Of a stretch of 27,310 nucleotides of DNA, positions 1,012-27,310 are shown in pieces. The stretch comes from a virus (Duplodnaviria; Heunggongvirae; Uroviricota; Caudoviricetes), in the IMG/VR virus record IMGVR_UViG_2778261168_000001, one strand, 5' to 3'. The translations under genes were made by a program, and so were the position numbers. The stretch's first letter is position 1. The number at the start of each line of letters is the position of its first letter. The notes below the pieces were generated by a model. It searched no databases. It had not been told where the DNA came from and saw only the letters and a list, made by a program, of their open reading frames with translations.

Positions 1012-1024
1012 TATTTTTCCTTAA

Positions 1025-4240: not shown

Positions 4241-4251
4241 ATTTACTCCAT

Positions 4252-4278
4252 AAAAAAACCCGCTTTCGCGGGTTTTTT
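4252..4278. terminator. Bidirectional rho-independent terminator (A7-CCCGC-tttc-GCGGG-T6)
   Basis: Plus 4252..4278 reads aaaaaaacccgctttcgcgggtttttt: perfect 5-bp GC stem extendable by A:T pairs, 4-nt loop, A-run on one side and T-run on the other. Sits 0 nt after the moron stop (4281..4283) and about 10 nt before the J-like RBS. Confidence 0.65.
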
Positions 4279-4280
4279 AC

Positions 4281-5441
4281 TTATTCAACCTCTTCTAAAC
4301 TGCTCACTCTGGACCCTCGGCGGAAATTATCATCATTTTTAACATACTCGTATGAATCCAGAATCAAACCAGATATGCGAAGTATATCTTCCGGATTAGT
4401 TATATGTATCCTTTTACCATCCGTATCAAGTCGAGCTCGTCTTATTTCATTCAACTGAACTTCACTAAGCGAAATAGGTAAAGTTATAAATGAAGATTTT
4501 TTATCATAAAATCTTAACAGCCATCTATTAGTTTTACCATTCAATAGTACACCGAAATATGACTCAGTATCTTTATATTCTATATTATCTTCTGTTTGTA
4601 TGATTTGTTTTACCCTTTCAAATAGCTCCAATTCTTTGGCTGTGGTTATTATGTTGGGGTTTTCTTCATCAACAATGGCGTTATTAACTTGTGTATCCGT
4701 TGCATCATTTTCTTTAGTTTGCTCTACCGGTTGTGTAGATAGCCCGGAAACCACCATTGCGCTAACAGCGCGCTCAACGGCCTGTTTAACTAATGGAGTC
4801 ACGAACTCAAGAAATCTCTGATTAAGTTGTCTCTCAATATTTGAACGACTAGCAACATATCGAACAAACTCCAGATCAACTTCACGAAGACTAGAACTGA
4901 TTGTTTTAGTAAATGAATTCAAATAAACACTTTCTTCAGCCAGTGTCCGTAAAGCCTCTGGTTTGAATTTATCATAACGAAAACGAAATAATTGTGTAAT
5001 ATCGGAGTGAGTTAGAGAATCCATTCTTAATTTTAAAAACGGCGTTGAATCCATTATGTTTTTTTGTTTCAAATCCGTAAAAAAACGCCATTCAACACCA
5101 TTTGTAATGGCTGATATAGTAACTTCCGGTGTTGAATTAAAATATCTTGATAGCTGTGGGCAGTGATTATCAATTTGTTCTGAAAACGATTTCGCCTCAA
5201 TGAACATCACAGGAACATCATGACAAAATAAAGCGTAATCAACCCGTTCATTAGCCTTAACCCCGGGGAAGTCAGCACTATACTCAGCTTTGACTTTTCT
5301 TGGATCATACGGAGTAAAACCAAGAATATCTAGTAATGGCATAATGAGTGCTTGTTTTGTCGTTTCTTCAGTTGTACAAAACACCCCCATTTTTGCAACA
5401 TGCTCTGTGTGTATTTTTAACTTATTTGCAAAATTTTCCAT
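4281..5441 (-). CDS. Moron-encoded protein with N-terminal HsdR-N-like PD-(D/E)xK nuclease domain and a C-terminal domain of unknown function; candidate phage-exclusion protein
   Basis: Track ORF 4281..5456 (391 aa). ATG at 5441 (MENFANKL...) has a GGAGGAG RBS; the ATG at 5456 has none. N-terminus shows TEETTKQALIMPLLDILGF...ERVDYALF...PVMFIEAKSF...ITNGVEWRFF, the motif set of the type I restriction R-subunit N-terminal nuclease domain (compare EcoKI HsdR ...ADYVLF...VVEAK as recalled). Gene is conspicuously AT-rich by eye relative to flanking tail genes. Confidence 0.55.
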   Translation of the reverse strand: MENFANKLKIHTEHVAKMGVFCTTEETTKQALIMPLLDILGFTPYDPRKVKAEYSADFPGVKANERVDYALFCHDVPVMFIEAKSFSEQIDNHCPQLSRYFNSTPEVTISAITNGVEWRFFTDLKQKNIMDSTPFLKLRMDSLTHSDITQLFRFRYDKFKPEALRTLAEESVYLNSFTKTISSSLREVDLEFVRYVASRSNIERQLNQRFLEFVTPLVKQAVERAVSAMVVSGLSTQPVEQTKENDATDTQVNNAIVDEENPNIITTAKELELFERVKQIIQTEDNIEYKDTESYFGVLLNGKTNRWLLRFYDKKSSFITLPISLSEVQLNEIRRARLDTDGKRIHITNPEDILRISGLILDSYEYVKNDDNFRRGSRVSSLEEVE

Positions 5442-5469
5442 GCTTGTCTCCTCCATGGTTACAATCTGT

Positions 5470-5499
5470 ATTTTGCAAATCCGAAATAATATATGTCAA
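5470..5499 (-). promoter_or_regulatory. Candidate sigma70 promoter for the moron gene
   Basis: Minus strand has a perfect -35 TTGACA (5499..5494), an 18-nt spacer, then CAAAAT (5475..5470, 4/6 to TATAAT), about 15 to 30 nt upstream of the candidate starts. A 17-bp AT-rich perfect palindrome lies upstream at 5569..5585. Confidence 0.3.
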
Positions 5500-5590
5500 T
5501 ATGCTCCAGCTTAGAAAATTACTCGCCCCCCTAAAATATCTCTCTACAGCACTCCAAACCAAGGTAAAAGTTTTATCATAAAACTGTGAT

Positions 5591-5938
5591 TCATACCGGC
5601 ACCTGCGTCCGGTAACTGGTCCCATTAAAAAACACAACATCGATGTTATAGGTGGGGTTATCTGCTCCATCTACCTTTGAAATTGCCAATGATGCAAAAT
5701 AGCCGGCAAACTGTTGCTGAACCATGTTCACATAGTAGTCCGGGTAAATCTGCTGCACGATGCACTGCTGCGCAGGAATACCGTAATTCGCGTAAAACGG
5801 CGACTCCCCCAATCCCAGCTTTAACGTCTGAATGAGCGTCGTCAGCCAGCCGTAGGAGAAATCACCGTTGGCGTCAGATTCTACTGCAACCCATTTTTTG
5901 TTGCCGTTCGCGTCGGTGACGCGGCCCCATGTTCTCAT
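5591..5938 (-). CDS. Small baseplate protein, gp25/W-like by position and size (Mu gp46 slot)
   Basis: Track ORF 5591..5971 begins with TTG. ATG at 5938 (MRTWGRV...) has a GGTGAGGG RBS and sits 8 nt after the small upstream ORF stop. 115 aa between spike and J-like genes; family not verified from sequence. Confidence 0.35.
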   Translation of the reverse strand: MRTWGRVTDANGNKKWVAVESDANGDFSYGWLTTLIQTLKLGLGESPFYANYGIPAQQCIVQQIYPDYYVNMVQQQFAGYFASLAISKVDGADNPTYNIDVVFFNGTSYRTQVPV

Positions 5939-5945
5939 CGTGCCC

Positions 5946-6083
5946 TCACCACCATCGGATCTGGCCAACAAAATAACCAGACGCCAGAATCAGAAAGACC
6001 AACCAAATAAGCAAAAACTTCCAGGTGGATAATTTTTCAGCCATAACTCGAATCTCCCGAATCAGTTTGCTAAAATCAAACAC
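5946..6083 (-). CDS. Small hydrophobic single-pass membrane protein (45 aa from GTG, or 32 aa from the internal ATG at 6044)
   Basis: Not in the ORF track (below length cut-off). Minus strand reads AAGGAGAAGTC-GTG...: MFDFSKLIREIRVMAEKLSTWKFLLIWLVFLILASGYFVGQIRWW-stop. Strong SD, hydrophobic core, translationally coupled to the next gene. Confidence 0.35.
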   Translation of the reverse strand: MFDFSKLIREIRVMAEKLSTWKFLLIWLVFLILASGYFVGQIRWW

Positions 6084-6112
6084 GACTTCTCCTTGCCTTA
6101 TTCAAGGTCAGA

Positions 6113-6147
6113 AACAAAAAGCCCCGACTGCTGCAACAGTTCGGGGC
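6113..6147 (-). terminator. Rho-independent terminator on the minus strand, downstream of the spike gene
   Basis: Minus strand reads GCCCCGAACTGTTGCAGCAGTCGGGGC followed by TTTTTGTTTC: about 10-bp GC-rich stem with one bulge, then a T5 run. Confidence 0.5.
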
Positions 6148-6188
6148 TTTCGCTTTATGGATAGAATTTAAAGTGAAATAAACTGGTA

Positions 6189-6902
6189 TTAACCCGGATT
6201 TGGTTGCTTCGACGTGATCGTGCTGCCGCCGCTTTGAACGCCAGTCACATCGTGGCTGTGGCCGCTGGCGCTCACGCCGTTGATAATTGCATCCTTCTCG
6301 ACCTTAAGAGGACCAATCAGCGAAGCGGTTGTATCCTTCATCTGTGCTTCGTCTTGGACGATTGGACCGTTCAGGTGAATTTTCCCGTTCAGGAAAATAT
6401 CTTCAGCCTCGAGGTAAACAGCTTTCGACTTTTGCCTGATTTCTTCCGGAGCCACCGTTACCGAGCTACTGCCGTCCTCTGTTTTGAGGATCGCGCCATC
6501 CGGACCGTACAAAACGATTTTTTGCGGATCTTCGTCGGACCAGTCCTTGTTTGCCAGTGGCACGAAAAACAGTGGAGTGAGCGACATCGAGTAAGAGAGC
6601 GTCGCCATACCGGTTCCCAATCCGGACACTCCGCGCAGTGATACATCAGCGGCAATTGTTACTCCTCGATCGCCCGGCTGTATCGGGTAACGAATATACG
6701 GGAATGTGGCGACAGGGATTGTTATCTGCGGAAAGTTGATCCCCTCCGGCAGCATATCAAACTGAACTGTCACTATCTGCCCGCTGACATCGACAACATG
6801 GCAGGGCAATTCACGGCCTTTAAGCTCGGCTTGCTGGTTACCAGAACTGGTCATCATCTCTGACAGCGTTCGGAGAAACGGTATTTTTTGAGCGTTTGAC
6901 AT
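6189..6902 (-). CDS. Baseplate central spike protein (P2 gpV / Mu gp45-like)
   Basis: 237 aa; ATG at 6902 overlaps the upstream stop (TAATG). C-terminal Gly/Ser-rich tip contains an HSH motif (..SGHSHDVTGVQSGG..), as in iron-binding spike apex domains. Position after the hub-like gene. Confidence 0.5.
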   Translation of the reverse strand: MSNAQKIPFLRTLSEMMTSSGNQQAELKGRELPCHVVDVSGQIVTVQFDMLPEGINFPQITIPVATFPYIRYPIQPGDRGVTIAADVSLRGVSGLGTGMATLSYSMSLTPLFFVPLANKDWSDEDPQKIVLYGPDGAILKTEDGSSSVTVAPEEIRQKSKAVYLEAEDIFLNGKIHLNGPIVQDEAQMKDTTASLIGPLKVEKDAIINGVSASGHSHDVTGVQSGGSTITSKQPNPG

Positions 6903-16754: not shown

Positions 16755-16768
16755 TAATTAATATCCCC

Positions 16769-17386
16769 TTAAATTAAAAACAGGCCGCACGGTTTGCCGA
16801 TTTCCCAGACAACGTTACCGCCATCCTCTTTTTTCACCGTCAGGTTTCCGTCAACTGAAACCATCAGCAATTTAATATCCACTTTCGGATTAGCTCCGGG
16901 TGATCCCGAATAAACATCAACCATGTTTTTCGTCAGATCCCACACAAAACCACTGGCAGCAACGGTGTTATTACCATCAGCCAGCGCAACAACTTCTGCA
17001 CTGACAGGGAGAGGAATGCGGGCACCTGAGCCAACGCGGTAATAGTGAACAAAGCCACCCGCGAGATATAACGGCACCGGATTATCCGGCGTGGTAATGC
17101 CATGAAATGCCTGATTAAAGACCGTAAAGGCGTTACATGCGTTTTGTGTAGCCTGCTTAATTACCGCGCCGTTAACGCTGTCTTTCGCGGGAGCAATGCA
17201 CTCCATAACTCCAACGCCACCCCATACCGGCTCAGTGATTTTGCTGTCCAGTCGACCGGAGCAAAGTTGCAGACGAATTGCCGGATCATCCTGCGCATCC
17301 CCCTGCATCAGCCCACGGGATTCGACGTTAAAAAGGCCACCAAATGCTCCACGGTTTTTAAACGGATGAAAGTTAATATCAGCCAT
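16769..17386 (-). CDS. Head protein between protease/scaffold-like gene and capsid gene (scaffold or decoration candidate)
   Basis: 205 aa; ATG at 17386 overlapping the upstream stop by 8 nt. Confidence 0.35.
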   Translation of the reverse strand: MADINFHPFKNRGAFGGLFNVESRGLMQGDAQDDPAIRLQLCSGRLDSKITEPVWGGVGVMECIAPAKDSVNGAVIKQATQNACNAFTVFNQAFHGITTPDNPVPLYLAGGFVHYYRVGSGARIPLPVSAEVVALADGNNTVAASGFVWDLTKNMVDVYSGSPGANPKVDIKLLMVSVDGNLTVKKEDGGNVVWEIGKPCGLFLI

Positions 17387-18701
17387 TGTTCAGGCTCCCT
17401 TGAGTGTTAATTTTTGCCAGACGACGCCCCGGAATTTTGAAAGCACTTAGCCAGACGTTCGGATCGCCCTGATATTCAGTAATGCGACGCCCGGCTTCAT
17501 CGTTGCGGATACGTTTATGCAGTTGCCCCTGCGTACTCATCATTTCTTTTTCGATGGACTGACGGGCAGCACTGAAAATTGCGTCCTCAAGCACAGCCAG
17601 CGTTGCAGAATCCGCAATCGCGCGAATATTGACGTCCTTATGTGCCGGAGAGTGTTTCTGCATAGCGATTAGCGCACGCTTGCGGTAGTCCAGCGCATTT
17701 TCACCAGAAAACGGTGCTGGCGCGTTTTTACCGCAGGCACTGAATGCGGAGTCGGCTTTAGCCTGTGCTTCTGCCAGGGCAGAGTCATTGCGTTCTTTTT
17801 CTGCCTCCTCGTCAGCCTTACGCTGTTCTTCCGCTTCGGAATCAGCCTTTGCTTTCTCCTCAGCGTCTTTAGCTGCCGCCTCGTCAGCTTTGGCTTTTTC
17901 TTCCGCCTCCTTTGCCGCAGCTTTATCAGCTTTACGCTGTTCCTCTGCGGCTTCATCGGCTTTGGCCTTTTCTTCGGCCTCTTTTTTCGCCTGATCTTCG
18001 GCGTCCGCCCGCGCTTTGTCCCGCTGTTCCAGTGAGTCCATGCGCGTGACTACTCCATCGATTTTCTGATTAATGCCGCTCAGGGCATCGTTAACCACCC
18101 CCTGTAACAGGGCCTGGAGTTCTTCTTTTTCCATCTCAATTTCACCTGTATTTGTCACTTCAACCCCTGCGGGGATCCGGTCTTTATCCCACACGCCCAG
18201 CGAGCCGTGGTCTTTCGTCACCAGGGCGATGTGATCAACAAGGAAAGGAACGCCCTCGATTAAAAAATTGGTGTCACCTTCCTGTACTTCCACATTTCCT
18301 GATGTGCTGTTGAACACCACCGACGGACTTGTCGAAACATCCCCCTCAGTGATTTCTTCAACAATGCTCTGGAGATAAACGCGGCACACCGCCCATACCT
18401 CGTCACCCCGGATATACGGCAGCATGACACTGCCGACGATCCGCGATTTAAAATCCTCCTCCGTCAGAACTGCGTCGTCAGGATGGTTTGCGATAACCGG
18501 AAGGCCATTGCATCGCCTTAAAAACTCCTCGTTCAGATAGAGCTTTGGATCACGCCATACGTGCTCTTTCAGCCCGGCGCGATAGGCAAGCCCGGTTCCG
18601 GTTATTCGCAAATTCACCAGCCACATGTTGGAGAATTTCACCGGAGACGGTACGGTTCCGTCCCTGATGCGTTCTGCCACTTCAAGCTCGGTTAAACTCA
18701 C
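17379..18701 (-). CDS. Prohead protease/scaffold-like protein with Lys/Ala/Glu-rich repeat region
   Basis: 440 aa from GTG at 18701 (GGAGAAGGG RBS). Central region is degenerate tandem repeats (AEEKAKADEAA..., EEQRKAD...) typical of scaffold coiled coils. Position between the head-morphogenesis gene and capsid. Confidence 0.45.
   Translation of the reverse strand: MSLTELEVAERIRDGTVPSPVKFSNMWLVNLRITGTGLAYRAGLKEHVWRDPKLYLNEEFLRRCNGLPVIANHPDDAVLTEEDFKSRIVGSVMLPYIRGDEVWAVCRVYLQSIVEEITEGDVSTSPSVVFNSTSGNVEVQEGDTNFLIEGVPFLVDHIALVTKDHGSLGVWDKDRIPAGVEVTNTGEIEMEKEELQALLQGVVNDALSGINQKIDGVVTRMDSLEQRDKARADAEDQAKKEAEEKAKADEAAEEQRKADKAAAKEAEEKAKADEAAAKDAEEKAKADSEAEEQRKADEEAEKERNDSALAEAQAKADSAFSACGKNAPAPFSGENALDYRKRALIAMQKHSPAHKDVNIRAIADSATLAVLEDAIFSAARQSIEKEMMSTQGQLHKRIRNDEAGRRITEYQGDPNVWLSAFKIPGRRLAKINTQGSLNNG
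17774..18029 (-). repeat. Imperfect in-frame tandem repeats encoding a KAE-rich coiled-coil segment
   Basis: DNA shows reiterated gct-tt(c/t)-tc-ttc-(c/g)gc-ctc units on the plus strand; protein shows AEEKAKADEAA x3 and EEQRKAD x2. Confidence 0.6.
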
Positions 18702-19515
18702 GTTTGCCCTTCTCCGTTAAAAATTCGTCGGGTAGTTTCTGAGGGGCGTAGATCGGCAGTGCATCGCAACTGCAATAAACCTCCTCCCCGGCAGCAGTGA
18801 TTTCGTCATAAAAACCATATACGGGCTTAATCAGCCCCTGCTCCAGCGCCCACGAATCGCGGAGGAGATAAATTTTCTCGTCGCGCTCTTTGTGGTCCTG
18901 TCGGTATTTGTAGCCCGGACGCCGCCAGTTCGAATGCCAGCGCAGAGCAATCGCACCACTCTGAACAGCCAGCAGATACTTAACGTTGCTTGCCAGCTTA
19001 TGCCCCTGGTCAATTGCCACCCGGCGACTGATAAAATCCATATCCTTCACGGACTTCTGAAAACTGGACTTCACTTCCCGGCGATCAATTTCGCTCACCC
19101 CGTCAGGCGGAATGGACGTAACCCACCCCTGAAAACGCTGTATGGTTTTCTCGATGGCCTGTTCTCGGTTGAGTTTTATCAGGTTGGCACTGGCGAAAAT
19201 TCGCCTGTCGAGTTCCTTGCGAAACTCAGGTTTCAGTTTTTCAACAGTGATTTTTTTAGGGCCGTCAGGAGGCTGATCCCGTAATGCCCCGCCGTCGATG
19301 ACAAGACGGCTGTAGATAGCGGTGAGATGTTTTCTGGCTACGGTATCATCAGGGGTTTCTCGCTGAGCGGCTACACGGAGTTTCCGGCACCATTGGAGCA
19401 ATGATTTTTCGCTATCCCACCCGTGATTTACGTAGTAGTTAACGGCATCCGTCAGAACCTCATACAGCGTCCTGATCCGTCTCTTCCTCCTCCCCGCCCG
19501 GCTGGAAATTGCCAT
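18682..19515 (-). CDS. Head morphogenesis / minor head protein (Mu F / SPP1 gp7-like by position)
   Basis: Track start 19653 is TTG. ATG at 19515 (MAISSRAGRRKRR..) has an AGGAG RBS 7 nt upstream and overlaps the portal 3' end by 56 nt. Immediately follows the portal gene. Confidence 0.45.
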   Translation of the reverse strand: MAISSRAGRRKRRIRTLYEVLTDAVNYYVNHGWDSEKSLLQWCRKLRVAAQRETPDDTVARKHLTAIYSRLVIDGGALRDQPPDGPKKITVEKLKPEFRKELDRRIFASANLIKLNREQAIEKTIQRFQGWVTSIPPDGVSEIDRREVKSSFQKSVKDMDFISRRVAIDQGHKLASNVKYLLAVQSGAIALRWHSNWRRPGYKYRQDHKERDEKIYLLRDSWALEQGLIKPVYGFYDEITAAGEEVYCSCDALPIYAPQKLPDEFLTEKGKREFNRA

Positions 19516-20896
19516 CAGGCGTCTCCTGCTTCGGTGGTTCATAATTCGCCAGCGCGTCCACATCAATGATGAGTGGAGCTTCGCCATAGGTTTGCGTGGC
19601 ATTAACAAGGCTTGCCAGCCATTCAGTGACGGCGGCACGGTTTTCAGGATCAACCTGTGGCGACACGGCCGAGAAAAGTGCTATCGCCTGTTGAATCACT
19701 TTACTGTCGCTTTCCCGGCGTTTGTCCGGCGACTCCTCCACCAGCTCCTGCCACGTCGCGGTAAATTCACGTCGCCACTGGTAAAACGTGGTTTTATAGT
19801 CGTCGGTTATGATGTCCGGGTAATCATTTTTCAGCGACTGATAAAATTCCTCGTTCCAGGCGATGTACTGCACCAGGCGTTCGAAATAATCCATCACAGG
19901 TTCAATCTGCTGGCGTACACCATCGATATACTGGCTGACGGCTTTCGAATCTTCGGTCCCCTCACCGAAACCATTCGAAAAGGCTTCCTCTTTAATGAGG
20001 ATCGCCGGAACGTCACTCCCTGACGCAATATCGGAAATAATATTGTCGCGTGCAGCGTTTAGCGCACCATCGATGTTTTGTAGATTCAGCGAGGTAACGT
20101 CCTCATCCTTCCCGATACTAAGTACACCTTTATTTTTTGCCTCTTTGACGTTTTCCCTTTTTCGTCCCGTGGCGGCAGCCATGATCCCGTCAAGTTTCGA
20201 ACCATACTGCACAACTTTAGCTACCAGTACGCCCGCCTTCTGGCTGACGAGATCATTAGCCTCCATTGTGTTGATATAGGATTTCAGGGAATAAAGAACG
20301 CGCTGAAACACACTTCGTCCGGTGAATCCGAACGATGAACTCTGAAACTCCAGATAAATCGGTGTGCCGTTGAAGATTTTCAGTGTGCGTGACGGATGCC
20401 AGTCTTTTCCGCCAATCTTCAGCTTTTTATTGGCTTCCTGGAAAAACGGACTGTTTGGGTTCTGGTCAGTCACCATCGAACCGGAAGCGTTCAACGGATC
20501 CCACGCGTTGATATACACATCCTCTTCTGTCAGTCCGAACGTCGGAAGCGGTTCACGACATGAAACACTGTCGGTGCCCACGCCGATCGCTGCAGCACCG
20601 TAGCAACGAGACAGAAAAAACAGATTTTTAATCTTCTCGTTAACCTTCATACGTTCCCATACCTCCTGAAAACGCCGCACAACCCGCTCGTCAGGGTCTG
20701 TCTCCACGTTGTACTGGCGCGGCTTACACATCGCCATCAGTATGGGTTTTTCGACAAGTTTCCCGCCCAGCGGGTGGTACTGCCACAGCAGTTTACACAG
20801 TTCATAGCCAATGTCTGTTCCCGGCTGAATTTCTTCAGCCTCAAGAATGCGCATCAGCGAAGAACTGAGATTTACAGAAATCTCGATCTCAGCCAT
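19460..20896 (-). CDS. Portal protein
   Basis: 478 aa; ATG at 20896, 18 nt after the terminase stop; acidic C-terminal tail (..GGEEEETDQDAV). Position and size. Confidence 0.65.
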   Translation of the reverse strand: MAEIEISVNLSSSLMRILEAEEIQPGTDIGYELCKLLWQYHPLGGKLVEKPILMAMCKPRQYNVETDPDERVVRRFQEVWERMKVNEKIKNLFFLSRCYGAAAIGVGTDSVSCREPLPTFGLTEEDVYINAWDPLNASGSMVTDQNPNSPFFQEANKKLKIGGKDWHPSRTLKIFNGTPIYLEFQSSSFGFTGRSVFQRVLYSLKSYINTMEANDLVSQKAGVLVAKVVQYGSKLDGIMAAATGRKRENVKEAKNKGVLSIGKDEDVTSLNLQNIDGALNAARDNIISDIASGSDVPAILIKEEAFSNGFGEGTEDSKAVSQYIDGVRQQIEPVMDYFERLVQYIAWNEEFYQSLKNDYPDIITDDYKTTFYQWRREFTATWQELVEESPDKRRESDSKVIQQAIALFSAVSPQVDPENRAAVTEWLASLVNATQTYGEAPLIIDVDALANYEPPKQETPDGNFQPGGEEEETDQDAV

Positions 20897-20914
20897 CAGA
20901 AAAAATCCAGATTT

Positions 20915-22243
20915 TTACAATTCCGCGTAATTACCGTGCGCGATAATCAATCCGTAGGTGTAACAATCGAAAAGGTCATCAGCACGTTTATGTGCGTCTT
21001 TGTCTGCCAGGTGGAACCCGGCTATTTGCTTAATGAGGTGGTTTGCGGTGGTGCGTTTGAATGAAACGGTCTTGTCGTAAGCCTCCCGGACGATTTTGCA
21101 CATCCCCTGATAGTGGTAGCTGGATGCCATCACCGCCCGTTCGTCTTTGCCTTTGCTGGTTAGTGCCGATTTAATCGGCGTCATATCCCAGCCTTCGGTT
21201 TCCGCCTTCTGGTTGAGGATTGCCCCCATCGCAGCGTCTTCCATAAAAATTCCCTGGCTACCCAGACGCGGACGGCATAATTTCGCCAGGCGCTCGAGGT
21301 TGCCATAAACGCCGGGGATATATTCAGGAAGCAATGACGCTTTAATTTGCGTCACATCCCAGTCAATAATCGTCAGTTTTGGCTCGTCCGAATACGTTGA
21401 CTCATAAGCGAAATACACCACGCCAGTACCATCATTTTCGGTCCCGCCTTTCAGCGCCGTATCCATCACTGCGAAAATCATGTCGCAATGCGGCGGCATC
21501 TCAATCGGCTGACCGTCCACCAGCAGCTTATCGACATCGAGTAACGCGTCTTTCGACCAGTCCACGAACTCGGCAAGATATTCCTGCTGCCAGACACGCG
21601 GATCGGATTTCTTCTCCGTTTCCTCCAGTTCTTCTTTCGGAATGTACGGATTCGATGAAGTTGGCGCATAGTGCATGACAAATCCCAGGGATTCATCGTG
21701 GCATATCGCGTAGAAAAAATTGCTCTCGTCGATACCGTTTGGTGTGGAAAATACCCACGCACAGCCACGGTAATCGACAAGCGTCGGGCGTATAGCGCGG
21801 GGCCAGATTTCCTCGAGCATTTCCGGCGATTTAGTGAATGCGGCCTCATCAATCAGCACAGCGTGATACTTACGCCCACGTCCGGCCAGTTTGTTATTGT
21901 CCGTTACCCAAAAATCGATGCGTCCCCCATTGCGGAGGATGATTCGTTTTTCGTTCTTGGACTGACTGAGTATCAGTGGTTGCAGTGCAGCGCAAATCTC
22001 GTCCCAGATTTCCTGGTACTGACGGTATTGAGCGGTAAAGATTCCCACCCTGCCAGCTATCAACTGCCCGGTAGTGGGCACTGCAAATCGTCTGGTTGCA
22101 TAACTGGTGGCGATGTTCACCAGCATCACCGTTTTACCCCAACGGCGACCGCAACATACCGCATGGAAACGCTCTTCTATTGCCGCCGTCCATGCGGCAA
22201 TTTGCCCCTCGTGAGGCTTTGGAAGGAAAATTTCAATCGACAT
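20915..22243 (-). CDS. Terminase large subunit
   Basis: 442 aa; ATG at 22243 with GGGAGTGG RBS. N-terminal Walker A-like motif CCGRRWGKT, and an acidic VLIDEAA segment consistent with Walker B. Position before portal. Confidence 0.8.
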   Translation of the reverse strand: MSIEIFLPKPHEGQIAAWTAAIEERFHAVCCGRRWGKTVMLVNIATSYATRRFAVPTTGQLIAGRVGIFTAQYRQYQEIWDEICAALQPLILSQSKNEKRIILRNGGRIDFWVTDNNKLAGRGRKYHAVLIDEAAFTKSPEMLEEIWPRAIRPTLVDYRGCAWVFSTPNGIDESNFFYAICHDESLGFVMHYAPTSSNPYIPKEELEETEKKSDPRVWQQEYLAEFVDWSKDALLDVDKLLVDGQPIEMPPHCDMIFAVMDTALKGGTENDGTGVVYFAYESTYSDEPKLTIIDWDVTQIKASLLPEYIPGVYGNLERLAKLCRPRLGSQGIFMEDAAMGAILNQKAETEGWDMTPIKSALTSKGKDERAVMASSYHYQGMCKIVREAYDKTVSFKRTTANHLIKQIAGFHLADKDAHKRADDLFDCYTYGLIIAHGNYAEL

Positions 22244-23327
22244 TATCCACTCCCGGCATCGGCAGAGAGTTGTGAATAATTACTTGGTTATTAGCGCCAC
22301 CAGCACCTTTCTTGAGGTTTTCAATCTCGGTGCGCAGTTTTTCATTGCGCAGGCGTTTCCATTCATCATCCAGATCCCTATTTGCAGATCCTTCTTTATT
22401 TTCCGGCAACGGCTTTTTCACAGTCGTCAGATACTTCAGGAGTTCGCGTCGCGCTGCGCTTTTGTCCTCCATCAGTATTTCGACGCCGAATTTCCCGTAC
22501 TTAGCCCCGGCATAAAGCAGTCGCGCATCACCATCAAGCAGGGTGGTATCGGCAATATGGATTTCTCCCCGCCCCTCACCACAGCATTTCGGGCAGTCAT
22601 GATTGGGTATGGCGTTATCAACGAATCCGAGGCCGCCATACTCAGGCGCAGGTTTACCGTCCTTGCTGGCCTTCTCTGCGGCTTTATCGAATTCCTCAAT
22701 ATCGCGCCACTGGTAGAGATGGTTCTCGCCCCAGCAATAACGGCAGTTAACACGGCGAAATTGTGCAAGCTGATTGGGGTCGGCCTGGACAATGGCCATC
22801 AACTGACTCACCAGTAAATCCAGGTCTGCGGTATAGCGTTTCTGGTACTGATTGCGGAAGTAGCTGATGGCACGATAAACCCTGGCATTTCTAAACATGC
22901 GGCTGGCGTTGCTGTTGGCTGTCGCACCTTTCCCTTCATACCCAGCCAGTCGGTATGCCTCTGTCGGCTTTTTACCTTGGGCAACCAGCATGGCGAATTT
23001 TGCCTGCTGGTCAGAAATGCCGAATTCATCGGGACAGAATGAAATTTCCTCCGCGTCGCCCTCATTCAGGCACGCATCGGATACTGGCTTTTTTTTCTGA
23101 GATTTTCCGTTCCGCTTGTGCGCAGTCTGCGCAGATTTTTTCAGCGCACTTTTTTGCGCAGTTTTGCGCATTTCTGTCTGCGCATTTTTCGGAGGTTTTT
23201 TGATGTAACGACGGGCTGTTGCGTAATTAAGTCCCCTTGCTTCACACCATGCCACCGGAGATATACCGGAGCGGGTGTATTCAGCAATATACTCCTGCTG
23301 CAACGCCCCCCAGTCCGGTCTGCTCAT
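22233..23327 (-). CDS. Terminase small subunit candidate (N-terminal HTH, lysine-rich linker, CxxC..CxxC zinc-ribbon-like motif)
   Basis: 364 aa; ATG at 23327; overlaps the terminase large start by 11 nt. N-terminus GALQQEYIAEYTRSGISPVAWCEARGLNYATARRYIKK looks like an HTH; ..CRYCWGE...CPKCCGEG are Cys pairs. Larger than typical TerS, so the call is by position. Confidence 0.45.
   Translation of the reverse strand: MSRPDWGALQQEYIAEYTRSGISPVAWCEARGLNYATARRYIKKPPKNAQTEMRKTAQKSALKKSAQTAHKRNGKSQKKKPVSDACLNEGDAEEISFCPDEFGISDQQAKFAMLVAQGKKPTEAYRLAGYEGKGATANSNASRMFRNARVYRAISYFRNQYQKRYTADLDLLVSQLMAIVQADPNQLAQFRRVNCRYCWGENHLYQWRDIEEFDKAAEKASKDGKPAPEYGGLGFVDNAIPNHDCPKCCGEGRGEIHIADTTLLDGDARLLYAGAKYGKFGVEILMEDKSAARRELLKYLTTVKKPLPENKEGSANRDLDDEWKRLRNEKLRTEIENLKKGAGGANNQVIIHNSLPMPGVDNVD
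23119..23184. repeat. Six phased copies of (T/A)GCGCA separated by T-runs inside the terminase small-subunit candidate gene
   Basis: TGCGCA at 23119, 23128, 23155, 23165 and 23179, and AGCGCA at 23143, with intervening T4 to T6 runs. Region encodes the Lys/Ala-rich linker. Confidence 0.6.
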
Positions 23328-23330
23328 CAG

Positions 23331-23582
23331 TTAATCCTGATTTTTATCCACCCTGAGTAGTTCGCGCAGGGCAAAGGCATCCCCTTTTCTGGCAAGCTTA
23401 AACAATGCCGCTCGTAGCTCGGCTTCACCTTTCGCTCTGCCCTTACGGATGGACGCATAAAAATTTGTCATTGCTTCCCGATTTTCTTTCAGTCGGTTCA
23501 GATCAACATCCAGAACGTCAGCGATTTGTTGTGCAGTCATCCGGCACGCTGCCAGAGACTCGACTTTCGAATACGGAATCAT
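23331..23582 (-). CDS. Small HTH DNA-binding protein upstream of the packaging genes
   Basis: 83 aa; ATG at 23582 with GGGGGTGA RBS; stop is 3 nt before the next start. MTAQQIADVLDVDLNRLKEN is HTH-like. Confidence 0.4.
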   Translation of the reverse strand: MIPYSKVESLAACRMTAQQIADVLDVDLNRLKENREAMTNFYASIRKGRAKGEAELRAALFKLARKGDAFALRELLRVDKNQD

Positions 23583-24450
23583 TTGTCACCCCCATTGATA
23601 TGCAGGGTGTCTTCTTCCTGTATTTTTCGTGAATGATTTTTACTGCAGCGTTGTTCCAGGTGACCTGATGGTGAATGCGTTTATGGCTGGCGCCCATCAG
23701 GGATATTTTTACGCACGACGGCGCATACATGACGGAGTAAAAACTTTTAACGTAGGTTCCGGAATCCAGATACAGTTCGGTCATTCCGCCGCTGTTTTTC
23801 TGCGTCTGTTTCTGCCCTAACTGGACAGCACCAATCGTCATAAACAACTCACCACGGCGACCGAGATTCGTGTACGTATTCACATCCTCGTTAATGCGCC
23901 CCATGAATGAGAACGGTCGATCAACCGAACAGATAAAGCTGTTCATTGCCTTGCGTTTCACCCACGAAGCATGGCCGCCATTGTCACCAAGAAAATCCCC
24001 GCCCTGCGACATAGCGATGGAAAGAGCAGGTATTGATTCGTAGTACGCCAGCATTTCAGAAAGGATCGCATCCAGTTTCCTTATCGGAAAATAGGCCTGG
24101 TCATAGTTGCGATCCACCCGAAACTGGAACTCGTGATAATCATCATCGAGCTGAATGAAGTATTTACACCCGACCAGTTTTGCCAGGTCGAAACAGGCAT
24201 TACGGGCGTAAAAAATTGAGCGGCGGTCACAGAAATTATCGGCTTCGTCAAAACGACTGGCGATATCGGCTTTGGAAAACACCAGCACCTGTTCACCAAA
24301 TTCAGCCATGTATTGATGCCGTGTCTTATCTTCATCATCAACAACGATAAAAATTTTCCCGGTATAGCCAGCACGACGCAACGTCCGGTAAGTCAGAACT
24401 TTGTCCGGTCGCCCGTGAGTCAGAATAAAGGCGCAAAAATCATCACGCAT
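23518..24450 (-). CDS. Soluble GT-A-fold (family 2-like) nucleotide-sugar transferase-like protein
   Basis: Track start 24471; the ATG at 24450 (MRDDFCAF..) has a very strong GAGGAGGAGG RBS. N-terminus FILTHGRPDKVL...GKIFIVVDDED and a later FIQLDDDYHEF (DxD-type) motif match the GT-A N-terminal signature. No obvious transmembrane segments. Confidence 0.45.
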   Translation of the reverse strand: MRDDFCAFILTHGRPDKVLTYRTLRRAGYTGKIFIVVDDEDKTRHQYMAEFGEQVLVFSKADIASRFDEADNFCDRRSIFYARNACFDLAKLVGCKYFIQLDDDYHEFQFRVDRNYDQAYFPIRKLDAILSEMLAYYESIPALSIAMSQGGDFLGDNGGHASWVKRKAMNSFICSVDRPFSFMGRINEDVNTYTNLGRRGELFMTIGAVQLGQKQTQKNSGGMTELYLDSGTYVKSFYSVMYAPSCVKISLMGASHKRIHHQVTWNNAAVKIIHEKYRKKTPCISMGVTNDSVFESRVSGSVPDDCTTNR

Positions 24451-25234
24451 ATTCCTCCTCCTCACCACCATGCATGATCTCCACCATGCGCTGCGTCATC
24501 CGGACAAATCCATTTTCAATAGCCTGCTGATAATCAATGATCACCAGCGCCGACTCCTCGAAAAAACACTGAATTTCAGCGGGGGCGTGAGCGTAATAGT
24601 CCGCAATTCTGCTGAAATTAAACACCGTGTGACGTTCTGCCGCACACAAGAGGAACTTCTCAATATCAGGCTCAAGGGACGCCGAACGTATCCGGCTGAT
24701 CAACTCCTGAGTTTTCGTATCGTCGTACAGTTCACTGATATCTGGTTTATCGCCCGACGGCTCATAAACAGGCGTATCAATTTTCGTCGTGTACGGCTCC
24801 TCCTCATTTCCTGTACCGGGCAAAACATCCGTCAACAGTTCATCAATTTCTGTCGGGATGAAGCCTGTCAGGGAGACATCAAAATCAGCATTGATTAGGT
24901 CCGACAGCTCCATCCGCAACAGATCTTCATCCCAGCCAGCATTCATCGGCAGGCGATTATCTGCCAGGCGGTACGCCTTTTTCTGCTCATCCGTCAGGCC
25001 AGACAGAACAATGACCGGAACAGAATCCATTTTGAGCATTTCAGCCGCCATAACACGACCGTGACCCGCAATAATTTCGCCCTTTTCGTCAATCAGCACC
25101 GGATTAGTCCAGCCGAATTGCTTAATACTTTCTACCAGTTGTGCCACCTGCTCAGTACTGTGCGTCCTGGCGTTGTGCGCATACGGTGACAATTCTTGTA
25201 ATGGGCGATAGACTATCTTTAATTTCTCGCTCAT
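24443..25234 (-). CDS. ParB-like nuclease domain protein
   Basis: 263 aa; ATG at 25234. N-terminus YRPLQELSPYAHNARTHSTEQVAQLVESIKQFGWTNPVLIDEKGEIIAGHGR contains the ParB/sulfiredoxin-fold GxxR box (AGHGR). Overlaps the next gene start, so the two are co-operonic. Confidence 0.65.
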   Translation of the reverse strand: MSEKLKIVYRPLQELSPYAHNARTHSTEQVAQLVESIKQFGWTNPVLIDEKGEIIAGHGRVMAAEMLKMDSVPVIVLSGLTDEQKKAYRLADNRLPMNAGWDEDLLRMELSDLINADFDVSLTGFIPTEIDELLTDVLPGTGNEEEPYTTKIDTPVYEPSGDKPDISELYDDTKTQELISRIRSASLEPDIEKFLLCAAERHTVFNFSRIADYYAHAPAEIQCFFEESALVIIDYQQAIENGFVRMTQRMVEIMHGGEEEEYA

Positions 25235-25261
25235 ACAGCCTTGCTTTATGAATAAAACGCA

Positions 25262-25285
25262 CCCCAGCAGCCAGTGCTACTGGGG
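25262..25285 (-). terminator. Possible intrinsic terminator downstream of trkG
   Basis: Plus reads ccccagcag-ccagtg-ctactgggg (9-bp stem with 1 mismatch); the minus-strand stem is followed by TGCGTTTTATT. Confidence 0.35.
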
Positions 25286-25371
25286 ACGGAGGTGTTGCTG
25301 GTAAAGTTAGGTATTGGATCAATGAGTGAGTCAACATAATATTAAACTCACAATTATAAATCAGCCATATA

Positions 25372-26829
25372 TTAGGAGCGCCAAAAAAAACCTGAAAACA
25401 ATATAATAACAGGATAAATTTCAAGGCGACCAAGAATCATAGCTATGCACATTAAACATTTTGCAATGTCATTAAGCACTCCGAATGACGATGCAGTAGC
25501 CCCAAAACCTAATCCCATATTATTAATACATGCAGCCACTGTTGCAAATGATGTAAGAAAATCATATCCCATACCATTTAACACCAGTATAAAAAACACC
25601 GTGAAGAGAGTATAAAGAAAAAAGAAACTCCATACAGACCTCATTACACGATCTGTAACTATCTTCCCTCCTACATTTACACTCAACAACGCTCTGGGAT
25701 GAGAAAGCTGATTTATCTCGTGTTTGCTTTGTTTGAAAAGTATAAGAAATCGAAGTGACTTAATTCCACCACAAGTTGAACCTATACATCCCCCAAAGAA
25801 ACTTGACAACAGCAAAAACACTATCGTGTGCGTGGGCCAACTTGCATAATCCTGCGTAGCTAAACCATTATCAGTGAGCATGGAGCTGGCAAGAAAAAAC
25901 GAATGAATAAAACTTCCATGCAAGTCATACATACCTATATGCCAGACCTGGAAAGAGGTAACAATGATCACCCCTAAGGCTATTAACAGAAAGAAACGAA
26001 GTTCAATATCTCTGATTAAAGGTTTTATCGTTTTCCTGCTAATAACAATATACCAAAGAGTGAAGTTGAAAGCCGATAGCAGGGAAAAAGAACCAGCCAC
26101 CAGCTCAACCAAATAGTTATTAAAATATCCGATACTCTCGCTATGAGTTGAGAAACCACCAAGCGAAACTGTGGAAATCCCGTGACAAATAGCATCAAAC
26201 AAAGGCATTCCTGCAAGTCTATAACAGACAATACAAGCAATACCTAATAAAGAATAAGTTATCCACAGTGTCCGTGACGTATCGGCCAGGCGGGGAGTGA
26301 GTTTGTCATCCTTAAATGGCCCCGGCATTTCTGACTGATAAAGCTTTGCACCACCAATACCCAATAATGGCAATACAGCAACCGCCAGAACAATAACTCC
26401 TAAACCACCTATAAAATTTAACTGTGACCGATAGTACAAATATGCCCGAGGTAATGAACTAACATCATCAATTACAGTTGCTCCTGTTGTTGTTATTCCA
26501 GAAACCCCTTCAAACAGAGCATCAATGAACGTTAAATTAAGTTCTGAGTCAATCCATAAAGGGAATGCACTAATAACAGAAAACAAAATCCAAAACATTA
26601 CAATTATAATAAACCCATCACGGGTACGTAATTGAATGCCAGATTTCTTAGTTGTATACCACGCTCCGCCACCAATGCAAAAAAATATAACGAAAGTTAT
26701 AAAGAAAACGAACAGGCTTTTTTCTTTATAAAACAATGCTACAACCATTGGTGGCAACATTGAAAGACTATAGAGCCAAACCAGGAACCCACACATATGA
26801 GTAACAACTCTTACATGAGATGTATTCAT
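25372..26829 (-). CDS. trkG: TrkG/TrkH-family potassium uptake transporter (prophage cargo)
   Basis: 485 aa from ATG at 26829 (MNTSHVRVV..); the track's 491-aa version starts at TTG 26847, which has an AAGGTGG SD. Multiple membrane helices with the reiterated glycine-containing pore motifs of TrkH/KtrB (FCIGGGAWY, TTGATV, NFIGGLGV, STVSLGGFS, GGCIGSTCGG, INNMGLGFGAT). Gene is visibly AT-rich. Rz/Rz1-trkG is the Rac prophage arrangement as I recall it. Confidence 0.85.
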   Translation of the reverse strand: MNTSHVRVVTHMCGFLVWLYSLSMLPPMVVALFYKEKSLFVFFITFVIFFCIGGGAWYTTKKSGIQLRTRDGFIIIVMFWILFSVISAFPLWIDSELNLTFIDALFEGVSGITTTGATVIDDVSSLPRAYLYYRSQLNFIGGLGVIVLAVAVLPLLGIGGAKLYQSEMPGPFKDDKLTPRLADTSRTLWITYSLLGIACIVCYRLAGMPLFDAICHGISTVSLGGFSTHSESIGYFNNYLVELVAGSFSLLSAFNFTLWYIVISRKTIKPLIRDIELRFFLLIALGVIIVTSFQVWHIGMYDLHGSFIHSFFLASSMLTDNGLATQDYASWPTHTIVFLLLSSFFGGCIGSTCGGIKSLRFLILFKQSKHEINQLSHPRALLSVNVGGKIVTDRVMRSVWSFFFLYTLFTVFFILVLNGMGYDFLTSFATVAACINNMGLGFGATASSFGVLNDIAKCLMCIAMILGRLEIYPVIILFSGFFWRS

Positions 26830-26846
26830 ATCTAAATATTCTTTCA

Positions 26847-26900
26847 ATTATAACCACCTTGCTGCAATATTATGATTATACTGTATAAAATTTAACTCCT
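26847..26900 (-). promoter_or_regulatory. AT-rich upstream region of trkG with two perfect TATAAT hexamers (candidate promoter)
   Basis: Minus-strand TATAAT at 26880..26875 and 26852..26847; no convincing -35 found. Confidence 0.25.
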
Positions 26901-26966
26901 CTTAGATCTTACTTCACTGTTCCTTATGAAACAATCATCAAAATGAATCATATTGTAGTTAAGATT

Positions 26967-27263
26967 TTACTTTAAACACTGCTCGGTTATGTATTGCTGA
27001 GCACCTTCAAGTTGGGCCTGCATCATTACCAGTCGTTCCCGGAGGGTGAAATAATCCCGTTCAGCGGTGTCTGCCAGTCGGGGGGAGGCTGCATTATCCA
27101 CGCCGGAGGCGGTGGTGGCTTCACGCACTGACTGACAGACTGCTTTGATGTGCAACCGACGACGACCAGCGGCAACATCATCACGCAGAGCATCATTTTC
27201 AGCTTTCGCATCAGCTAACTCCTTCGTGTATTTTGATCCTACCCACGTAATATGGACACAGGC
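26967..27263 (-). pseudogene. rzpR: Rz-like i-spanin gene fragment (C-terminal part only; N-terminal membrane anchor missing)
   Basis: Translation ...KYTKELADAKAENDALRDDVAAGRRRLHIKAVCQSVREATTASGVDNAASPRLADTAERDYFTLRERLVMMQAQLEGAQQYITEQC matches the lambda Rz C-terminal two-thirds as recalled. The frame hits an in-frame TAG at 27266..27264, and the residues upstream of KYTKEL diverge from Rz. Confidence 0.55.
27026..27211 (-). CDS. rzoR: Rz1-like o-spanin outer-membrane lipoprotein
   Basis: 61 aa, ATG at 27211: MRKLKMMLCVMMLPLVVVGCTSKQ... with lipobox LVVVGC and a proline-rich segment (KPPPPPAWIMQPPPDWQTP), embedded in the +1 frame of the Rz-like ORF. Near-identical to lambda Rz1 as recalled. 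Confidence 0.8.
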   Translation of the reverse strand: MRKLKMMLCVMMLPLVVVGCTSKQSVSQCVKPPPPPAWIMQPPPDWQTPLNGIISPSGNDW

Positions 27264-27310
27264 CTAAGCGAGGTTCTTGTTTTCAAATTGTTCCGGACTG
27301 AGGCCGCCAC

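Follow-up and report, generated by a model that had tools for sequence, protein, structure and literature searches.

The AT-rich gene located between the lysis genes and the packaging genes of this 27,310 nt stretch of viral DNA (hereafter the window) is trkG itself, the prophage-borne paralogue of trkH, and it is very probably a passenger gene ('moron') in a Rac-type lambdoid prophage, which in the lysogen would be transcribed from its own promoter, be translated from a TTG startcodon, be insulated by a hairpin from the genes downstream, and contribute to K+ uptake by the host. The identity, composition, position, boundaries and distribution of the gene and the purifying selection acting on it were observed here, while its promoter, H-NS repression and Na+-dependent transport come from published work on the E. 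coli K-12 locus, which is 99.9% identical. The presence of trkG in a Rac-type prophage, its low GC content, its own sigma-70 promoter, partial repression by H-NS and Na+-dependent K+ uptake were all known already, with the low GC content and the Rac location published in earlier work cited through PMC9898762. A first-pass annotation of the window had proposed a lysogenic conversion function in ion uptake, and a K+ uptake role that benefits the host is indeed the published function (PMC9898762). The features discussed are listed in Table 1.

Table 1. Features of the trkG locus and its surroundings in the window.
Feature	Position	Strand	Description
Contractile-tail head/tail module	481..22243	-	PHROG assignments; context for trkG, outside the trkG unit
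terS (terminase small subunit)	22233..23327	-	Terminase_2; first gene of packaging/morphogenesis module
TAGT (TET-associated glycosyltransferase-family) protein	23518..24471	-	PF20691, 4e-36
ParB/Srx N-terminal-domain protein, full length	24443..25234	-	263 aa; ParB_N 8e-07; RefSeq annotation in relatives
Intrinsic-terminator-like hairpin with U-rich tail	25252..25285	-	Stem 25285..25262; 17 nt upstream of ParB/ynaK start
trkG CDS as annotated in RefSeq	25372..26829	-	485 aa plus stop; ORF list and Pfam TrkH
Predicted TTG start and five more codons (MKEYLD)	26830..26847	-	491 aa; TTG at 26847-26845, 18 nt upstream of annotated ATG
Shine-Dalgarno-like AAGGTGG	26854..26860	-	6 nt upstream of TTG; read from sequence
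AT-rich upstream spacer of trkG	26830..26966	-	GC 0.255; contains two TATAAT hexamers
Rz i-spanin gene (rzpD/rzpR type), 3' part	26967..27233	-	Truncated by IS3
Rz1 o-spanin lipoprotein gene, embedded in Rz	27026..27211	-	61 aa, intact
IS3-family insertion sequence, left end	27234..27310	+	Starts TGATCCTACCCACG..., runs off window

The protein encoded in the window is 100% identical to K-12 TrkG (b1363, NP_415881.1), with 2 silent nucleotide differences in the DNA, and by this identity is the K+-translocating subunit of the Trk system; identity to E. coli TrkH (b3849) is 41% over the full length. The Pfam TrkH profile (PF02386) matched residues 40-483 (E=5e-145, 484 bits, profile positions 3-500 of 502), and residues 7-485 aligned end to end with TrkH of V. 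parahaemolyticus (PDB 3PJZ/4J9U, E=1e-120), as expected for the full-length TrkH-family transporter called at first pass. The alignment with TrkG and TrkH which had been proposed as a check runs through intact pore motifs, with the filter segments TTTG116AT, SLGG225FS, TDNG322LA and NNMG439LG aligned with those of TrkH. The gating loop GGCxGSTCGGxK is present as GGCIGSTCGGIK at residues 346-357 (family pattern GGCxGSTxGGxK), and the conserved arginine of the last helix as GR468LEI, so that the full-length profile, the four filter glycines, the gating loop and the arginine all place the protein in the TrkH/TrkG family of the Trk/Ktr/HKT superfamily, and its identity to the characterised K-12 protein, D327 included, makes it TrkG proper. 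Across 84 members of the TrkG clade there is no variation at G116, G225, G322, G439, R468 and D327 or in the gating loop. This clade is separate from TrkH, with 61-79% identity to TrkG and 40-44% to TrkH, and the relatives at 61-79% identity lie in ordinary chromosomal contexts. TrkG thus belongs to an Enterobacterales-wide clade of chromosomal paralogues with an invariant Na+-dependence residue, as D327 is required for the Na+ activation of TrkG, a protein shown to mediate Na+-dependent K+ uptake (PMC9898762). From its identity to the protein characterised in that study, TrkG of the window would also be expected to take up K+ in a manner dependent on TrkA, SapD and Na+.

The trkG coding sequence has a GC content of 0.381 (GC3 0.323), versus 0.488 for the remainder of the window, and is approximately 3.2 sd below the mean of 1458-nt windows (0.488, sd 0.033). 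Together with its spacer it deviates in composition from the flanking genes (0.49-0.53; Rz fragment 0.526, ParB 0.494, terS 0.513), and the complete interval 25235-26990 singled out at first pass has a GC content of 0.372, hence the low GC reported there is atypical when computed. It is not the lowest GC island in the window, as an HSDR_N ORF (4281..5456) has a GC content of 0.358. A low-GC donor of trkG was sought among its closest relatives and none was identified, with all relatives having a GC content above 0.381: the genes of E. fergusonii (79% identity, GC 0.424), Citrobacter (77%, 0.464), Pectobacterium (75%, 0.428), Buttiauxella (68%, 0.51) and Morganella (62%, 0.47-0.49) are all located in a non-phage context.

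The two TATAAT hexamers in the upstream spacer occupy 26880-26875 and 26852-26847 of the coding strand. The first is a candidate -10 box for trkG, while the second lies in the spacing between the Shine-Dalgarno sequence and the TTG startcodon, overlaps this likely start and is unlikely to have a -10 role; the AT-rich upstream region with TATAAT hexamers that the first-pass annotation had assigned to trkG is hence present, but only one of the hexamers is a plausible promoter element. A generic sigma-70 scan returned 5 promoter-like sites versus 6.5 expected from shuffled sequences, and no convincing -35/-10 pair could be discerned in the trkG upstream sequence. Since the scan gave no enrichment and called neither hexamer, support for the trkG promoter rests on the literature, where an RpoD-holoenzyme SELEX peak ('constitutive promoter') was reported at trkG in K-12 Rac (PMC5811629), a trkG promoter fragment drives luciferase and is partially repressed by H-NS (PMC9898762), and the promoter is active in uninduced K-12 with a transcript level similar to that of trkH (PMC5811629, PMC9898762). 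The K-12 Rac trkG region from which these data come is 99.9% identical to the window, and the upstream region is conserved in a stand-alone allele of E. albertii. An Rfam scan of the whole window detected no RNA family at gathering score, so that the spacers on either side of trkG contain neither a known riboswitch nor a known sRNA.

The annotated startcodon of trkG can probably be corrected. The Shine-Dalgarno sequence is conserved, reading AAGGTGGG in E. albertii and TGGAGG in E. fergusonii, and a TTG with a Shine-Dalgarno sequence 5-7 nt upstream is retained in E. albertii, E. fergusonii, Citrobacter and Pectobacterium, with the 491 aa relatives beginning at the position equivalent to the TTG at 26847. 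The annotated ATG of E. coli, in contrast, is replaced by CTG in Citrobacter and by ATT in Pectobacterium. Native TrkG probably starts at this conserved TTG, giving a protein of 491 aa rather than the annotated 485 aa.

On the downstream side, the stem of the hairpin has 10 pairs, 7 of which are G-C, followed by UGCGUUUUAU, with a folding energy of -22.5 kcal/mol (z = -4.05) that was equalled by 0/200 shuffled sequences. The hairpin described at first pass is therefore present, but its inclusion in the trkG unit does not stand, as the sibling prophages L034, L035 and L038, which lack trkG, match the window at 98-99% identity up to position 25284 with the hairpin included. Judged from these alignments the hairpin is a feature of the phage backbone at the end of the cargo slot and is not specific to trkG, and because siblings without trkG retain it, it cannot be taken as a sign that trkG brought in a terminator of its own. 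In strain 214-4, another hairpin followed by a T-run is located at the corresponding position. A search for repeats around the cassette found a single 12 nt family (approximately 92% identity, core TTATAATTG), with copies just past the trkG stopcodon (25348-25359), at the trkG start (26842-26853) and inside the gene. These could resemble a target-site duplication, but were treated as chance occurrences in AT-rich DNA, and the downstream copy lies beyond the end of the homology with E. albertii.

The position of trkG between Rz/Rz1 and a ParB-like gene, as recognised at first pass, is that found in K-12 Rac, and the 'lysis remnant' described there corresponds to an Rz gene cut by the left end of IS3. 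Homology between the window and the 465 nt rzpD gene of ETEC H10407 ends at 27235, whereas sibling L036 (assembly GCA_040741995.1) has an intact Rz gene of 154 aa and lacks the IS3, but is otherwise 99.95% identical to the window; many genomes contain IS3 ends that match window positions 27230-27310 at 100% identity. The translated Rz1 combines a lipobox-like MLPLVVVGC with a C-terminal part rich in proline, and its equivalent in L037 is called as Pfam Rz1. Towards the packaging genes, K-12 ynaK is a truncated remnant of the ParB/Srx gene, as K-12 homology stops at 24981 inside this gene. The TAGT protein is 97-100% identical in siphovirus-type and myovirus-type relatives, with ParB-TAGT forming a conserved joint upstream of terS, and the terS protein is identical in sibling prophages with and without trkG.

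The head/tail module consists of uninterrupted ORFs for terL, portal, head morphogenesis, capsid, sheath, tape measure/transglycosylase, baseplate hub and wedge, tail fibre and fibre-assembly proteins. Prophages that occupy the Rac site of other E. coli are 96-97% identical to it, and relatives of the module adjoin uspF/ompN at the right end of that site. The window is bounded by the IS3 on the early-gene side and by tail fibres on the other, and contains neither an att site nor early genes. The apparently complete morphogenesis module that had been highlighted next to trkG is thus intact at the level of its ORFs, but is not unusual, and with an IS3 in Rz the prophage is not pristine. Sequence covering at least 80% of window positions 19000-27310 was found in 0/5426 complete E. 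coli genomes and in no phage record, but a new combination of trkG with this head/tail module was ruled out by the draft assemblies L036 (99.95% over 15 kb), L037 and L039, the latter representing a contig type seen in 14 samples.

Of 5426 complete E. coli genomes, 1551 carry trkG DNA, in nearly every case directly flanked by the same sequences, and at least 80% of window positions 25100-27100 is covered in 1541 genomes, so that the Rz-side flank is retained; independent movement of the cassette is rare, because nearly all copies keep this flank. The same cassette is located next to distinct distal modules in the K-12 Rac remnant, in the prophage of ETEC H10407 with its lambda-like siphovirus module (ybhC), in a full Rac (ttcA) and in the present myovirus type, and these four contexts bear out the earlier suggestion that the cargo is conserved across mosaic backbones. 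Among siblings that have an identical terS protein and share the ParB/TAGT genes, some carry trkG and others do not, with the break at 25284/25285. The gene is therefore variably present between conserved genes, although the lysis cassette swaps along with it, so that the unit of exchange in the siblings comprises both. Strain EC9682 has a related Rz (94% identical from window position 26989) followed by other genes. In E. albertii, homology covers the promoter region and coding sequence only (window 27009..25368, 84% nucleotide identity), located between copCD and rsmF without Rz or ParB, and by this extent of homology the cassette is a self-contained unit in that species.

The linkage to the lysis genes raises an alternative, in which trkG mainly serves the phage in lytic growth, with late Na+-coupled K+ transport restoring the K+ lost upon infection or induction, or shifting the membrane potential and thus tuning holin triggering and lysis timing. 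The gene is on the strand of all late genes directly after Rz/Rz1, it co-varies with the holin_2_1/lysozyme/Rz cassette and travels with S-R-Rz, siblings lacking trkG have another lysis cassette, and nearly all copies keep the Rz flank. We nevertheless consider a mainly lytic role very improbable, as trkG is maintained by strong purifying selection both in K-12 Rac, a prophage unable to produce phage, and in E. albertii, where no phage genes flank it; its promoter is active in uninduced cells at the transcript level already mentioned (PMC5811629, PMC9898762), and its relatives at 61-79% identity reside in the chromosome. It is equally hard to credit that the lysis cassette and trkG form a single exchange module in which the Na+/K+ flux through late-expressed TrkG changes the membrane potential and thereby sets the holin trigger time, or restores K+ during phage development; TrkG would then be more than a passenger of benefit to the host.

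At the other extreme, trkG might be a largely neutral hitchhiker, which is xenogeneically silenced, redundant with TrkH, Kup and Kdp, and persists through its linkage to widespread prophage DNA. The repression by H-NS and the description of TrkH as the major and TrkG as the minor system (PMC9898762) would fit with this, as would the extreme AT content typical of H-NS targets and the absence of trkG from approximately 71% of complete E. coli genomes. Copies disrupted by IS1 (H64) and IS5 (H87) also exist, and because some genomes carry such copies, trkG is dispensable. Against neutrality, dN/dS between the E. coli and E. albertii alleles is 0.047 across approximately 16% nucleotide divergence, showing that purifying selection has acted on the TrkG protein; the frame is intact and at least 99% identical in 1518 records, the functional residues are all invariant across the clade, and trkG is not fully silenced and supports K+ uptake (PMC9898762). 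Neutral persistence thus seems unlikely.

We favour the reading of trkG as a host-benefit passenger, occupying a slot that is bounded by the lysis cassette on one side and the ParB-TAGT-terminase genes on the other. TrkG would function as the Trk membrane subunit, with four pore loops around one permeation path, which partners with the cytoplasmic TrkA ring of the host and, in E. coli, the SapD ATP-binding protein in Na+-dependent K+ uptake. In the lysogen, transcription would start from the sigma-70 promoter in the AT-rich spacer and be dampened by H-NS, translation would probably start six codons ahead of the annotated ATG, at the conserved TTG, and the hairpin before the ParB gene would stop the transcript from entering the packaging genes. 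During lytic growth, antiterminated late transcription would also read through trkG, because the gene has the same direction as the late genes. While trkG in Rac is a classic case of a phage-borne, housekeeping-type gene adopted by the host, and the window adds an intact myovirus-type Rac relative to the backbones carrying its cassette, there is little significance beyond good annotation. A by-product is a precise map of the cargo slot, which carries LT-IIa enterotoxin genes in Rac-SA53.

Compared with TrkH, TrkG is of the same family and architecture, with the four pore loops, gating loop and conserved arginine, but TrkH is encoded by a core gene with host-like GC content, has a Ser in place of D327, and is Na+-independent (PMC9898762). 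The K-12 Rac prophage shares with the window an Rz/Rz1 fragment upstream and the start of ynaK downstream of trkG (27235..24981, 99.9% identical), but has a deletion from inside ynaK (24981) to a tape-measure fragment, whereas the window has full-length ynaK, TAGT, terS, terL and a complete contractile-tail module; Rz is cut by a deletion in K-12 and by IS3 in the window. The ETEC H10407 prophage at ybhC and the full Rac at ttcA (deposited as vB_EcoS-683R6) have the same order of holin-lysozyme-Rz, trkG, ParB, TAGT and terS, with 97.6% identity over window 27235..22462 in the H10407 prophage, but continue from within terS with a P22-like capsid and a lambda-like non-contractile tail, where the window has a sheath/baseplate module. 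Conversely, Rac-SA53 (KU052037.1) and the siblings without trkG (214-4, L034, L035 and L038) share the myovirus-type module and the ParB-TAGT-terS joint, but have a lysis cassette of the holin/M15-peptidase type, and the lysis-packaging slot is occupied by LT-IIa genes in Rac-SA53 and by only a spacer of approximately 0.4-0.6 kb in the others. The classical lambdoid morons are bor and lom of lambda, and promoter-gene-terminator inserts have been described for HK97 and HK022. Like these, trkG is an extra gene of deviant composition past the lysis genes, which phage growth does not require and which would be expressed from the prophage. At 1.5 kb, however, it far exceeds them in size, its product is a transporter of the housekeeping type and not a surface or virulence protein, and the terminator-like hairpin behind it also occurs in relatives lacking trkG.

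The only long ORF in the interval 25235-26990 had been proposed in the first-pass annotation to be a full-length TrkH-family gene, and this was borne out: Pfam TrkH covers nearly the whole length of the 485 aa product (E=5e-145), and the crystallised Vibrio parahaemolyticus TrkH (3PJZ/4J9U) aligns with it end to end (E=1e-120). The suggested alignments gave 41% identity to E. coli TrkH and 100% identity to E. coli K-12 TrkG, with two nucleotide differences, both silent, and the pore motifs present. All four pore-loop glycines (G116, G225, G322 and G439) were found, as were the gating loop GGCIGSTCGGIK, R468 and D327, the last of which is needed for Na+ activation of TrkG (PMC9898762), and none of these residues varies among 84 full-length TrkG-clade proteins. 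Since the pore and gating residues and D327 are present and the identity to K-12 TrkG is complete, the gene is, by sequence, trkG itself and not just trkG-type. The observation is confirmed and its interpretation supported, with minor corrections, and the feature is already known: the K-12 trkG locus is 99.9% identical to the window DNA, and for that locus transport, reliance on TrkA, activation by Na+, an active promoter and partial repression by H-NS have been published (PMC9898762).

An in-frame TTG is located 18 nt 5′ of the annotated ATG, preceded by AAGGTGG at 6-nt spacing. This TTG and a Shine-Dalgarno sequence (together 26845-26860 here) are kept in E. albertii, E. fergusonii, Citrobacter and Pectobacterium. 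Where E. coli has its ATG, Citrobacter reads CTG and Pectobacterium ATT, and many relatives are called as 491 aa proteins with a first residue equivalent to the TTG. The true TrkG is probably a 491 aa protein (MKEYLDMNTSH...), with the annotated E. coli start probably misplaced by six codons.

Features surrounding trkG in the window
Feature	Position	Strand	Remarks
IS3-family element, left end	27234-27310		runs past window edge; interrupts Rz
Rz i-spanin gene, 3′ part	upstream of trkG, cut at 27234	-	truncated by IS3 left end
Rz1	27026..27211	-	embedded in Rz, intact
trkG ORF from in-frame TTG	25372..26847	-	ORF call
trkG CDS from annotated ATG	25372..26829	-	485 aa
Downstream hairpin	25285..25262	-	10 pairs, U-rich tail, -22.5 kcal/mol, z = -4.05
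ParB/Srx protein	24443..25234	-	full length; downstream of trkG
TAGT-family (TET-associated) glycosyltransferase	23518..24471	-	downstream of ParB gene
Small ORF	between TAGT gene and terS	-	
terS	22233..23327	-	
terL, portal, head morphogenesis protein, capsid, tail sheath	after terS	-	
Tape measure (transglycosylase domain), baseplate hub and wedge, tail fibre, fibre-assembly protein	further along	-	

The GC content of the trkG CDS is 0.381 (GC3 0.323) and that of the 137-nt upstream spacer 0.255, against 0.526 for the Rz fragment, 0.494 for the ParB gene and 0.488 for the rest of the window. The markedly low GC noted by eye was thus upheld by windowed computation (approximately 3.2 sd low in windows of trkG length, sd 0.033), although trkG is not the lowest-GC island of the window. 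A second AT-rich island within the baseplate gene block (4281-5456, minus strand; GC 0.358, GC3 0.265) is a 391-aa ORF with a nuclease-like HSDR_N domain (type I restriction enzyme R-subunit N-terminal) and relatives annotated as 'type I restriction endonuclease'; it resembles a further passenger gene, possibly used in defence.

The signals thought to make trkG an independent unit were only partly retained. TATAAT does occur twice upstream of trkG (26880-26875 and 26852-26847) and the hairpin exists, but with a TTG start the second hexamer is the spacer between Shine-Dalgarno sequence and start and not a -10 box, and the hairpin belongs to the common backbone, since sibling prophages lacking trkG match the window up to 25284. 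Strain 214-4, a trkG-less relative, has another hairpin with a T-run at the equivalent spot. A generic scan for promoter-like sites gave no enrichment; genomic SELEX with RpoD holoenzyme placed a constitutive promoter at trkG, from which its authors concluded that trkG came into Rac along with its own promoter (PMC5811629). Direct repeats with minus-strand core TTATAATTG, at 25348-25359 just past the trkG stop and 26842-26853 at its start, have a third copy within the gene and are probably due to chance in AT-rich DNA. In a lysogen, the hairpin would probably end the trkG transcript ahead of the ParB gene, while during lytic growth Q-antiterminated late transcription would probably run through trkG, as it is co-oriented with the late operon.

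The claimed position between Rz/Rz1 and a ParB-like gene was found as described. The IS3 insertion is recent, as the near-identical draft-assembly sibling L036 (GCA_040741995.1; 99.95% identity over 15 kb) lacks it. Every gene from ParB to the fibre-assembly protein is an uninterrupted ORF, and the head and tail module, of contractile-tail type, looks complete, in agreement with the earlier claim. The ParB/Srx and TAGT genes stand as a conserved pair just ahead of terS, with 97–100% identity across siphovirus-type and myovirus-type Rac relatives and a possible role in DNA modification or packaging; ynaK of K-12 is a remnant of the ParB/Srx gene. The stretch 21800-23200 (3′ end of terL and most of terS) has only 70–90% identity to the prophages of ETEC H10407 or 214-4 between flanks of 97–100% identity to relatives, and is, on these values, a local hypervariable or recombinant stretch in packaging-specificity genes. 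The label 'anti-CBASS protein Acb1 family protein' on RefSeq relatives of the minus-strand ORF 19460-20896 is probably an annotation artefact; this ORF takes the place of the portal gene and hits two portal families, phrog_146 (2e-74) and Pfam Phage_portal_3.

Three trkG-less siblings (L034, L035 and L038) have an identical terS protein and are 98–99% identical to the window up to 25284, past which they diverge into another lysis cassette with holins and an M15 peptidase; in this comparison trkG is exchanged together with the lysis cassette. At the opposite boundary, Rz relatives (94% identity) match the window only from 26989, and in strain EC9682 such an Rz is followed by other small genes instead. 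In lambdoid phages generally, the region past the lysis genes is a cargo slot, and the trkG region is such a slot. In phage Rac-SA53 (KU052037.1), the stretch that separates the lysis genes from terS (13347-14487) contains the genes for the heat-labile enterotoxin LT-IIa, making this a virulence-cargo slot in relatives; a pertussis-like toxin pair is located further upstream.

An allele in E. albertii NBRC 107761 (5819-7462; 84% nucleotide and 93% protein identity, GC 0.384) is located between copC/copD and rsmF, adjoining an NleF-like effector gene and without Rz or ParB, with homology limited to the upstream region and CDS (27009..25368). The dN/dS between the E. coli and E. albertii genes is 0.047, which indicates strong purifying selection, and both observations are evidence for trkG as a self-contained, selected unit. 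Redundancy with other K+ systems, H-NS repression and occasional IS-disrupted copies would suit a neutral hitchhiker, but this reading is contradicted by a dN/dS of 0.047 and by functional residues that do not vary across the clade. A role for TrkG in the lytic cycle would fit its co-orientation with the late genes and linkage to the lysis cassette, yet is unlikely because selection keeps trkG both in the defective Rac and at the phage-free E. albertii locus.

TrkG belongs to a clade (61–79% identity to TrkG, but only 40–44% to TrkH) spread over the Enterobacterales, including E. fergusonii, Citrobacter, Pectobacterium, Pantoea, Enterobacter, Cronobacter, Buttiauxella, Serratia, Xenorhabdus and Morganella. 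The three closest relatives examined are in non-phage contexts, for example next to ychF (Pectobacterium) or to porin genes (E. fergusonii). With a GC of 0.42–0.46, none of them reaches the AT content of trkG, and the comparison therefore yielded no donor.

trkG DNA was detected in 1551/5426 complete E. coli genomes (1518 records at ≥99% identity), with 1541 genomes containing ≥80% of 25100-27100, so the immediate flanks, the 3′ part of Rz and the 5′ part of ynaK, hardly vary, while the distal context differs between prophages. trkG with its Rz neighbour, at 99.6% identity, is also present on 15 large PLSDB plasmids, of which 12 are predicted conjugative; their hosts are E. coli, Klebsiella, Enterobacter and Citrobacter. 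On the one plasmid examined, Citrobacter freundii pA18-1 (9138-11197, typed non-mobilizable), it lies amid prophage fragments, IS26/IS5/Tn3-family elements and arsenic-resistance genes. A Rac-type prophage piece has thus moved onto plasmids and between genera.

The window's own combination, scored as ≥80% coverage of 19000-27310, was absent from all 5426 complete E. coli genomes and from phage records, but draft assemblies (L036, L037 and L039) do carry trkG with this module, which rules out a new mosaic. The myovirus-type module itself is shared with Rac-SA53 and prophages adjoining uspF/ompN. The earlier view of trkG as cargo conserved across mosaic backbones is supported by its other settings: in K-12 Rac only 27235..24981 is matched, as a deletion took away the remainder, whereas the trkG-bearing prophage of ETEC H10407, located at ybhC, is lambda-like and intact and combines a P22-like capsid with a non-contractile tail. 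The H10407 siphovirus module recurs in the deposit vB_EcoS-683R6, which is a full Rac at ttcA.
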